DNA of 64,000 nt from positions 6,043-70,042 of IMG/VR virus record IMGVR_UViG_2600255040_000002; one strand, given 5' to 3'. Made by a program: the position numbers and the translations under genes. The notes under the pieces were generated by a model. That model was not told the origin of the DNA. It saw only the letters and a list, made by a program, of their open reading frames with translations, and made no database searches. Positions 5,764-28,176 of the stretch are shown here, in pieces. Numbering within the stretch: position 1 is the first letter of the stretch; each line of letters starts with the position of its first letter. The stretch is from a virus. Taxonomy: Duplodnaviria > Caudoviricetes.

Positions 5764-6062
5764 AGTGCGAGAAATGCGGAAAGGAAATCGGGAATCTGTT
5801 GGTTGATACTTTCCTCCGAGATGGAAGCGACACTGACATTGAACAGCCTATCGTTGAATGTGAGCACAATGCCGCCTACATCGAAACAACACAGAATTGG
5901 ACAGGCTATGATCTGTCAGAAGAAGAAATGTTCGAAACGATAACCTGCCCGCACTGCAAGCAGTTCCCATTCAAAAGTACAGAGATACAGGTCTATGATG
6001 TGGTGCGGGTTGTCTGCTTCAAGACGGAAGAGAGAGGACGGCATGAGGGAGGTAAACAATGA
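5760..6062 (+). CDS. Hypothetical zinc-binding phage protein
   Basis: CEKC, CPHC. Confidence 0.75.
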   Translation: MKCEKCGKEIGNLLVDTFLRDGSDTDIEQPIVECEHNAAYIETTQNWTGYDLSEEEMFETITCPHCKQFPFKSTEIQVYDVVRVVCFKTEERGRHEGGKQ

Positions 6063-6235
6063 CTGAAACCGAAGTGATCTCCATTGATCGTCACGGCCAG
6101 CGGAAGGAGTATCCGTCGATCAAATCTGCCGCAGAGGATGTTGGTGTTCGCCCCTGCCGGATTTCTACCGCCTGCGTTACCGCCCACCGCTGCGCGGGAC
6201 GGTATTGGATCAAGAAGGAGGATATGGATGGGTGA
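6059..6235 (+). CDS. Small NUMOD1/IENR1-like HTH protein
   Basis: YPSIKSAAEDVG...ISTACVT..RCAGRYW; homologous to the C-terminus of 44967-45296. Confidence 0.65.
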   Translation: MTETEVISIDRHGQRKEYPSIKSAAEDVGVRPCRISTACVTAHRCAGRYWIKKEDMDG

Positions 6236-6458
6236 GTTCCCGGAAAGGCTGAGAAAGTTGCGGGAGTCCATGCGGCCGGTGCGGAGCATGACGGTTACAT
6301 CACAGCTGATGGGGTTGCATCCGGATATGTTGAGAAGATATGAGCGGGGAGAGGTAGAGCCGTCTATGGATGCCCTATATAAAATCGCAGATTATTATGG
6401 GGTCAGTACAGACTATCTGCTTGGGAGAACCAACTTCCCGTTTGTACATAGAGTATAA
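6228..6458 (+). CDS. XRE-family HTH regulator (candidate late regulator)
   Basis: RLRKLRE...RRYERGEVEPSMDALYKIADYYGVSTDYLLGR; last gene before the packaging leader. Confidence 0.85.
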   Translation: MGEFPERLRKLRESMRPVRSMTVTSQLMGLHPDMLRRYERGEVEPSMDALYKIADYYGVSTDYLLGRTNFPFVHRV

Positions 6459-6490
6459 TCTTTCATCTTCACAAAAAACCCGGACAATGG

Positions 6491-6533
6491 TTCCCACAAA
6501 AGTGGGAATTAAAATTGAAGACTATGCGACAAT
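6491..6533 (+). promoter_or_regulatory. Candidate late promoter: palindrome TTCCCAC-N4-GTGGGAA plus extended -10-like TGCGACAAT
   Basis: Perfect 7-bp inverted repeat near the -35 position, directly after the XRE gene. Confidence 0.45.
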
Positions 6534-6534
6534 G

Positions 6535-7100
6535 GAGCATGAGGGAGTAACTTCCCCATGCTCCTTCTTTTTCCTCCCCTTTCGGGCTGTGTACCAACCA
6601 CGGCCCAAAGGACAACCCACTCCCCCGGCAGGAGTATCTAGTAAGCAGATATTAAACGGAAAGGAGAGCCTTTCTCGTATGTTTCCTGCCGGGGGACTCC
6701 CTTCATATATGCCGCAGCACGATGCAGCCCACAAATCAGGGCCGGAGGGTCGCGGCCTCCATGCGGCAGAGCCGACAGTCATAGTGTCGGGCAAAAAAGC
6801 GGTGGTAGCTATGACCTGCCCCGAAATGTATTGAGAGCTTACCGAGGGTTTAGATGCTCACAGGATGGTGACCGAATCCCAATTCCATCCACAACCGCAC
6901 TATCCTGCTGAAAACTACCGTAGGACAGTGAAACTCCGAATGGAATGTAGCTGACTGATTGATGGTGTGACAATCTAAGCGGGAAGCGCACATACGCCGC
7001 CCCGCAGTTGCACGAGACGGGGGCGGGAAGCTCAATATTGAGGGGTTACGCATGGCGGGGTAATCTCCCGCCGCCTCTCCTGACATATACAGAGGAGGGG
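6535..7100 (+). ncRNA. Highly structured non-coding region with serial hairpins and tRNA-like cloverleaves
   Basis: Stems at 6535-6564, 6584-6606, 6621-6696, 6710-6768, 6799-6899, 7054-7072; no convincing ORF. Confidence 0.55.
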
Positions 7101-7105
7101 CATAC

Positions 7106-7600
7106 ATGGAAAATGAAATTTGGAAAGATGTTGTTGGTCTGGAGGGGTTTTATAAAGTTTCAAATCTTGGAAGAGTGCTTAATGCCAATACAAAGAAAAT
7201 AAGAAAACTCGTAAAAGACAAAGACGGGTATTACCAACTTGTCCTTATGAAAAATGGGAAACGAGTTTATCCGAAAGTTCACAGGCTTGTCGCGGAAGCG
7301 TTTCTCAAAAATCCTGATTTACTTCCTGTCGTTAACCATAAAAATGAAAACAAAACAGATAACAGACCTGAAAATTTGGAATGGTGTACGACAGAATATA
7401 ATAATTCATATGGGAGCAGAGTCAGGGGCGTTTTGCAGTTCAATTTAGACGGTTCACTGGTAAAAAAATATCAATCTATTAGCAGTGCAGCTAAGGAAAA
7501 CAAAATGGACATCAAGACGCTCTACAGATGGTGCCAAAAAGTAGGTGGAATTGGGTGTGGATATAAATGGTATTTTGAAGACGAGATGATAGGTGGATGA
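7106..7600 (+). CDS. NUMOD4-HNH-NUMOD1 homing endonuclease (I-HmuI-like)
   Basis: EIWKDVVGLEGFYKVSNLGRV; VHRLVAEAFL; VNHKNENKTDN..ENLEW; AT-rich relative to flanks. Confidence 0.9.
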   Translation: MENEIWKDVVGLEGFYKVSNLGRVLNANTKKIRKLVKDKDGYYQLVLMKNGKRVYPKVHRLVAEAFLKNPDLLPVVNHKNENKTDNRPENLEWCTTEYNNSYGSRVRGVLQFNLDGSLVKKYQSISSAAKENKMDIKTLYRWCQKVGGIGCGYKWYFEDEMIGG

Positions 7601-28114: not shown

Positions 28115-28176
28115 ATCAGGAGGACGTAAGGGACAAGGGCTGGTACACGTCGCCGCCCTCCTTGCGGCCTCCTGAT
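28115..28176 (+). promoter_or_regulatory. Structured leader of the accessory operon
   Basis: ATCAGGAGG/CCTCCTGAT stem with nested CGTAAGG/CCTTGCG and AGGGC/GCCCT helices. Confidence 0.55.

Follow-up and report, generated by a model that had tools for sequence, protein, structure and literature searches.

What is the function of some 650 nucleotides of gene-free, strongly folded sequence that lie between the last early gene and the packaging genes of a phage? The question is raised by a 64,000-nt stretch of DNA (hereafter, the window; positions 6,043 to 70,042 of the 70-kb IMG/VR virus record IMGVR_UViG_2600255040_000002), in which a gap at 6459–7105 separates an XRE-family HTH gene (6228–6458) from a NUMOD4/HNH endonuclease gene (7106–7600). 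On the 3′ side of the endonuclease, Pfam and PHROG identify a T4/SPP1-type large terminase and an SPP1-type portal, preceded by a probable small terminase. We favor, at a probability of roughly 0.55, the view that the gap serves as 5′ leader to the late operon (packaging and structural genes), organized like a tRNA island and carrying tRNA mimics and novel RNAs that are probably excised by tRNA-processing enzymes. The functions of the modules (including trans-acting roles for M1 and M3), their processing, and activation by the XRE protein are what we infer from the sequence and its relatives.

A folded, non-coding gap

An earlier note, made from the sequence alone, had described the gap as a folded non-coding RNA region, and thermodynamic folding agrees; of its six units, five lie at the positions it gave. 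The plus strand of 6459–7105 has a minimum free energy (MFE) of −256 kcal/mol, compared with −206 ± 4 kcal/mol for shuffled sequences (z = −11.8, 20 shuffles); the minus strand gives z = −4.6 (20 shuffles). Folded singly, the units defined below score between −2.2 and −5.9, with the exception of the M3c core, which alone reaches z = −1.8. The statement that no canonical tRNA is present likewise holds, as ARAGORN calls no tRNA gene across the window. The Rfam search that the note had proposed returned no known family, tRNA included, for the gap region (6400–7150), whether the gathering score or E ≤ 10 served as cutoff. A coding role was considered for two ORFs (6370–6834 on the plus strand and 6522–6794 on the minus strand). 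Neither has a Pfam family, and relatives that are 90–97% identical differ by frame-breaking 1-nt indels, which excludes coding. Our literature search found no paper that describes these RNA modules.

A predicted late promoter tied to the XRE gene

The XRE gene, on the plus strand, encodes a 76-aa protein (Pfam HTH_3; PHROG transcriptional regulator) and is the last early gene; a PDB sequence search with the protein retrieved generic XRE regulators only. In every locus class, the stop codon of this gene is followed by an inverted repeat, a TRTG-n-GAMAAT element, and a hairpin with a pyrimidine tract, in that order. The repeat of the window spans 18 bp (6491–6508; 7-bp arms, 4-bp spacer) and is a predicted operator on the grounds of its spacing and its link to the XRE class. 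It is followed by TRTG-n-GACAAT at 6523–6533 on the plus strand, a predicted extended −10 promoter whose consensus, TRTGnGAMAAT, persists in loci that otherwise diverge. In 35 of the 39 distinct loci, exactly 28 nt separate the repeat center from the hexamer; three further loci fit this spacing when counted by hand, the script having chosen another repeat there. At least six unrelated repeat sequences were found, each tied to its own XRE class with a differing C-terminus.

The window element has TG one base before the hexamer, A at hexamer position 2, T at position 6, and a dyad centered near −41, as an extended −10 promoter with a class II-type activator site would; its −10-like hexamer begins with G, not T. 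A sigma-70 consensus scan of the plus strand of the gap called no promoter, because a −35 element is absent. These features point to an activator-dependent extended −10 promoter that lacks a −35 element, with transcription predicted to start at ~6539–6541. The small XRE protein encoded upstream is the candidate regulator; it would bind the repeat ~40 bp before the start and thereby switch the promoter on. If the element is read in this way, the array that follows would be the leader of the packaging operon. The arrangement of repeat and predicted extended −10 element is new in this analysis.

The XRE specificity classes (at least six, each with its own repeat at fixed spacing; window 6228–6533, loci L311–L378) also form a natural set of putative orthogonal regulator–operator pairs.

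Hairpins and a three-way junction at the 5′ end

The first structured unit, a G+C-rich 13-bp hairpin that has one bulge and leads directly into a U-tract at 6565–6574 (6534–6574 in all, plus strand; z = −4.9), resembles an intrinsic terminator in that seven of the eight nucleotides after the hairpin are U. The bulge is probably why the automatic terminator scan did not call it. Relatives form a hairpin plus pyrimidine tract at this position from at least four different sequences. The unit overlaps the predicted start site, so that late transcripts would begin within its 5′ arm; early transcripts arriving from upstream, and not the late ones, would then be stopped by the hairpin and U-tract.

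Two further units precede the tRNA-like modules. A second hairpin (6578–6611, plus strand; z = −4.1) is at least 90% conserved in about 21 loci, and beyond it lies a three-way junction (6621–6696, plus strand; z = −5.9) closed by a perfect 13-bp stem (6621–6633/6684–6696) and conserved, again, in about 21 loci. The sole change in the closing stem among relatives converts an A-U pair to G-U, which pairs on the plus strand. All three units had been recognized before: the first hairpin as 6535–6564 (6534–6564 here), the second by its inner part, 6584–6606, and the junction exactly as we find it.

In several relatives, the slot of the window's three-way junction is taken by odd tRNAs to which ARAGORN gives an "anticodon" of just two bases (aa or ga), and Rfam scores some of them as tRNA. 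They were seen in L322, L323, L327, L362 (~155–240 nt past the XRE stop), L038, L056, L069, and L089.

M1, a tRNA-shaped module without decoding features

M1 is a 58-nt mini-cloverleaf (6711–6768, plus strand; z = −2.4) preceded by AUAU. It comprises an acceptor-like arm of 6 bp, a D-like arm of 3 bp, an anticodon-like arm of 4 bp, and a T-like arm of 5–6 bp, in keeping with the earlier description of a mini-cloverleaf at 6710–6768 whose T-like arm has a 5-bp stem and 7-nt loop. Alignment of 38 distinct copies (A2) supports the fold: 95.1% of cells are paired, four pairs show compensatory change, and the covariation score of 0.121 was reached by none of 500 shuffles (0.061) and by no slid control (≤0.062). 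Acceptor pair 6 is broken in a few recombinants. M1 departs from tRNA in its 6-bp acceptor, an anticodon-like loop of 6–8 nt, a position 33 that is mostly C, and a T-like loop reading UCGCR. It also has no canonical T-loop and no encoded CCA, and one extra base stands between the T-like and acceptor-like stems. In contrast to the conserved acceptor and T-like arms, the anticodon-like loop varies in both length and sequence and is the most variable part of M1.

Phage tRNAs counteract tRNA-cleaving defenses. The tRNA-shaped modules might correspondingly act as decoys or baits that soak up or trigger host tRNA-targeting nucleases or toxins late in infection, as their tRNA-like shape without decoding features and their predicted late expression alongside phage tRNAs would allow. 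We regard this role as improbable. No defense or anti-defense gene is linked to the array, and a variable anticodon-like loop (6–8 nt) between constant acceptor and T-like arms is, as a weak argument, the opposite of what mimicry of a single anticodon calls for.

M3, a module with complementary loops

M3, which occupies ~225 nt in the window, begins with two hairpins on the plus strand, Pa (6772–6790) and Pb (6800–6823), whose 7-nt loops (6778–6784 and 6809–6815) are fully complementary. All seven positions pair in each of the 19 distinct aligned rows, with one position alternating between A-U and G-U. The Pa stem contains three covarying pairs; in Pb, G-U variants pair on the plus strand, and one relative has an altered stem with the loop kept. 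The linker between the hairpins is just 2–3 nt in most relatives, and Pa/Pb also occur in relatives that have no HNH gene. Next comes a lineage-specific insert (6825–6895, plus strand) that only a few relatives share; elsewhere this variable site either contains nothing or is filled by different hairpins or tRNA-like units, so that M3 ranges from 127 to 355 nt in length. The module closes with the M3c core (6897–6995, plus strand), which consists of a long stem, a highly conserved 7 × 11-nt internal loop, a variable tip, and a terminal A/U linker. Some relatives carry the core without Pa/Pb. The expanded cloverleaf that the earlier note had placed at 6799–6899 dissolves under this comparison: its acceptor stem is unconserved, its 5′ part is Pb, most of the remainder is the insert, and the core continues to 6995.

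A covariance model of M3 (R1) was built from 26 short forms (alignment A1) and matches the window at 6752–6996 with 74.5 bits (E = 2e-18). Applied to 71 sources chosen by their XRE gene alone, R1 returned 46 hits, all on the plus strand and 300–900 nt past the XRE gene. In this XRE-anchored set, with the alignment fitted to the model, M3 is paired in 95.8% of cells and compensatory change is seen at 10 pairs; none of 500 shuffles reached the observed covariation score, and slid controls fell far lower. Compensatory changes thus occur among homologs of both M1 and M3. An alternative 6-bp pairing within the M3c core shows A-C mismatches without compensation. The cores of M3c and H (below) are almost invariant and for that reason contribute only a small covariation signal, and recent phage–phage exchange, not selection, may account for part of their conservation. 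Searches with R1 of 4 plus 151 Oscillospirales genomes gave no hit, a result that does not imply absence, as the first-look filter scored few candidates.

One relative, L121, has two tandem M3 copies (1234–1250 and 1852–1868), each followed by a tRNA.

In phi29 pRNA, which is encoded beside packaging functions, two mutually complementary loops pair between molecules to form a ring. M3 might similarly be a self-assembling phage RNA in which Pa of one molecule pairs with Pb of the next, giving dimers or rings late in infection, beside the packaging genes. Such pairing would be possible because, speculatively, the 2–3-nt linker may prevent Pa and Pb from pairing within one molecule. We consider this doubtful. 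M3 has no sequence or fold similarity to pRNA, these phages use a TerS/TerL motor, and M3 oligomerization is speculation. Were M3 to self-assemble, it would resemble pRNA or the cages of ROOL and GOLLD, with its variable insert, sometimes tRNA-like, displayed or enclosed.

H and H2 at the start of the late genes

H (about 6996–7027, plus strand) combines a 7-bp G+C stem with a conserved 13-nt loop. It is nearly always the last or second-to-last module 5′ of the first late gene, the next ORF beginning ~25–130 nt on, and in many loci it is followed by NCCA (ACCA or CCCA). The first genes that H precedes are unrelated to one another. The array runs into the first late gene with no intervening terminator, and many loci place a ribosome-binding site directly 3′ of H. 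In the window, H is followed by H2 (7040–7079, plus strand), a nested hairpin with an outer stem at 7040–7045/7074–7079 and an inner hairpin at 7054–7072, known from 25 distinct variants. Its outer stem is maintained through A-U/G-U changes that pair only on the plus strand. The earlier note had seen H2 as a T-arm/acceptor minihelix at ~7040–7080, and the inner hairpin within its conserved outer stem bears this out. In the MFE structure, the 3′ strand of H2 forms an alternative 9-bp hairpin with the ribosome-binding site of the HNH gene (7073–7101, plus strand; ATG at 7106), by which translational control or a switch at this site is possible.

The HNH gene (NUMOD4/HNH_3) is itself missing in all 68 XRE-anchored relatives. 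Their sequence is homologous to the window up to ~7097 and then passes to other genes or directly to the start of the small-terminase gene, homologous from 7606 onward. It has the appearance of a homing-endonuclease gene that was inserted between leader and terS.

Taken by themselves, these features would fit a leader that acts purely in cis, with attenuation or antitermination at the hairpin and U-tract, stabilization of the mRNA by H, masking of the ribosome-binding site by H2, and no release of small RNAs. H stands almost always beside the first late gene, whatever that gene is; the MFE pairing just described would provide the masking; and the hairpin and U-tract lie directly 3′ of the predicted promoter in every class. 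We nevertheless judge a purely cis-acting leader rather unlikely, as it leaves several observations unaccounted for. True tRNAs that stand in the same series must be excised, the modules are optional to the point that whole arrays have no H or no M3, and M1 and M3 are conserved though they are distant from any ribosome-binding site.

H was also considered as a cos or pac site and rejected, given the unrelated first genes 3′ of it and the headful-type packaging genes. No cos site is expected, because the large terminase is of the headful type and is accompanied by an SPP1-like portal.

Ordered modules and tRNAs in sister phages

A blastn search of the gap against 50,697 GenBank phage records returned only two short, modular matches, and M3 was in neither. 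One is M1 in an unverified faecal phage, with a true tRNA-Gly 3′ of it, and the other, in Flavonifractor phage Chenonceau, is H plus H2. As in the window, the XRE gene of both phages precedes a gap, here of 600–750 nt. In exact-motif scans of IMG/VR, the number of viral contigs exceeded 113 both for H and for the Pb motif. On hosts, a 14-mer scan covering 596 Gb of prokaryote sequence is uninformative: all 120 matches listed are chance matches, and none has the extended motif.

Collection by XRE protein alone, and hence unbiased for RNA, gave 68 loci, and 61 distinct arrays 3′ of the XRE gene were annotated. The order of modules in these arrays is fixed. The 5′ half runs from the hairpin with U-tract through the three-way junction or odd tRNA, M1, and Pa/Pb to M3c; the 3′ half continues with a tRNA, a minihelix ending in ACCA, H, H2, and the int-alpA motif, up to the first late ORF. 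Any module can be dispensed with, as in arrays of junction and M1 only, of junction and H only, or with M3c and no Pa/Pb. Arrays without H, M3, or both still reach the small-terminase gene, and therefore no single module is essential. The true tRNAs found in the arrays of sister phages are Gln-TTG, Arg-CCG, Ser-AGA, Thr-TGT, and Gly-CCC. In the closest relatives, L334 and L335 (92% identical over 6522–6994), a tRNA-Gln sits in the position that H takes in the window.

Two of the identities that the earlier note had offered for the region gain from these comparisons. Kinship with a phage tRNA array is supported, since sister phages carry tRNAs in the same ordered slots and with the same 5′ junction. 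For M1, M3, and H, an undescribed RNA is supported by Rfam, which left all three unmatched, at gathering and at lax thresholds, in the window and in 18 plus 5 relatives, the longer ones included. The only Rfam families found in the relatives' arrays are tRNA, int-alpA, GP20-b, and gut-2. Conservation and covariation of the modules make the proposal of a decayed tRNA array unlikely.

A single large, GOLLD/ROOL-like RNA, which had also been suggested, is unsupported, because the modules are gained and lost independently. The modules would then be domains of one ornate molecule, perhaps self-assembling, and some features recall such RNAs: the phage context, the adjoining tRNAs and the tRNA-like inserts at a variable linker site, as for GOLLD, together with the fully complementary Pa and Pb loops and a colinear module order. 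GOLLD and ROOL gave no score at E ≤ 10 in the window or at E ≤ 1 in the longer relatives; the modules occur in many different subsets; and no long-range pairing between modules was seen. We therefore hold one large RNA to be decidedly unlikely, and return to the reading of the gap as a late-operon leader made of separate modules, several of whose slots hold true tRNAs in sister phages. Each module would fold independently of the others in its ordered place.

Several array components of the relatives were noted in passing. The minihelix is a 13-bp hairpin with several G-U pairs and an ACCA end (L088 ~372–405 in the oriented extract; L002 2877–2920). It is frequent between M3c and H in relatives, absent from the window, and a look-alike of an acceptor/T minihelix. 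In Chenonceau (L002, ~2773–2825), ARAGORN leaves uncalled a tRNA-like unit that encodes CCA and has three arms (acceptor, D-like, and canonical T) but no anticodon arm. One array class, represented by L036 (~640–760 of the oriented extract), places a small minus-strand gene and a bidirectional terminator between the modules and H, and late transcription would have to cross this gene antisense.

A junction shared with tRNAs

The short A/U-rich linkers between units, to which the earlier note had drawn attention, are real and conserved as A-U-A-U|G. At positions −4 to −1, the bases A, T, A, and T, counted one position at a time, are present in 15–18 of 24 contexts of true tRNAs, 27–31 of 41 for M1, 16–23 of 23 for the minihelix, and 11–19 of 19 for H. 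M1, H, and the minihelix share with the 24 true tRNAs the RNase P substrate-type junction, U at −1 and G at +1. RNase P makes the 5′ ends of tRNAs, and since the mimics M1 and H have the same junction, they are probably cut there too. Host RNase P would cut M1 and the minihelix-like H on their 5′ sides, with RNase Z or exonucleases acting on the 3′ sides, and the expected products are stable small RNAs (M1, ~58 nt; M3, ~225 nt) together with a late mRNA whose 5′ end carries H/H2. For M1, recognition by RNase P and RNase Z is only plausible, because it has no canonical T-loop or encoded CCA, has mostly C at position 33, and contains the extra base described above.

A recombination seam would explain the AUAU|G junction equally well. 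This bears on the suggestion that the units act at the DNA level, as pac/cos elements or seams of recombination, or are decaying tRNA pseudogenes, in either case with no RNA function. The region does lie just 5′ of the terminase genes, several contigs end near H, the cores are nearly invariant, and the junction motifs may be such seams. Contig breaks at shared repeats are, however, ordinary assembly behavior, and the compensatory and G-U changes are specific to the plus strand. We consider the absence of an RNA function very remote.

Relation to known systems

Lambdoid and Stx phages provide a parallel in position, with the tRNA genes ileZ-argN-argO situated between pR′ and stx in the leader of the late operon. 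The slot is the same, directly 3′ of the late regulator and its promoter and ahead of the first late genes. The phages considered here are gut Firmicutes siphoviruses with a predicted XRE activator in place of Q antitermination, and the window itself has no true tRNA. The stable RNAs C and D of phage T4 are non-tRNA species of unknown function that are co-transcribed and co-processed with its tRNA cluster. They are comparable to the present array in context; T4 is a virulent phage of E. coli.

A mechanistic analogy comes from plant mitochondria. There, tRNA-like structures (t-elements) in mRNA precursors act as tRNA punctuation, at which RNase P and RNase Z make mRNA ends (PMC1920247). The same mechanism is proposed for M1 and H; t-elements are organellar, and processing in the phage is only predicted. 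GOLLD and ROOL are found in phages and prophages near tRNA islands, have intricate folds with kissing loops, sometimes include tRNAs within a variable linker, and are of unknown function (PMC5737381; 10.1101/2024.12.08.627333). The region studied here resembles GOLLD (RF01998) and ROOL (RF03087) in its phage location beside tRNAs, the complementary loops of Pa and Pb, and the tRNA-like units at its variable site. It differs in leaving their covariance models unmatched at all thresholds tried, and in being much smaller and modular, M3 measuring 127–355 nt. The locus adds to this setting beside phage tRNAs a widespread gut-phage set of smaller, modular RNAs.

These comparisons open questions about the role of tRNA-shaped non-tRNAs in late leaders, processing "punctuation," and RNA assembly by loop–loop pairing. 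The locus also offers a handle on them: a predicted inducible, regulator-specific late promoter, the cognate XRE protein, and modules that are naturally deleted one by one. Flavonifractor phage Chenonceau, carried by Flavonifractor plautii, is a cultured relative with several of the modules: the hairpin and U-tract, a tRNA-like unit, the minihelix, H, H2, and int-alpA.

The orphan phage RNA motifs int-alpA (RF02996), GP20-b (RF03003), and gut-2 (RF02990) stand directly after H2 in the relatives' arrays, and none is present in the window's own array. Elsewhere in the window, Rfam identifies a full-length RAGATH-31 RNA at 28119–28172 on the plus strand (80 bits).
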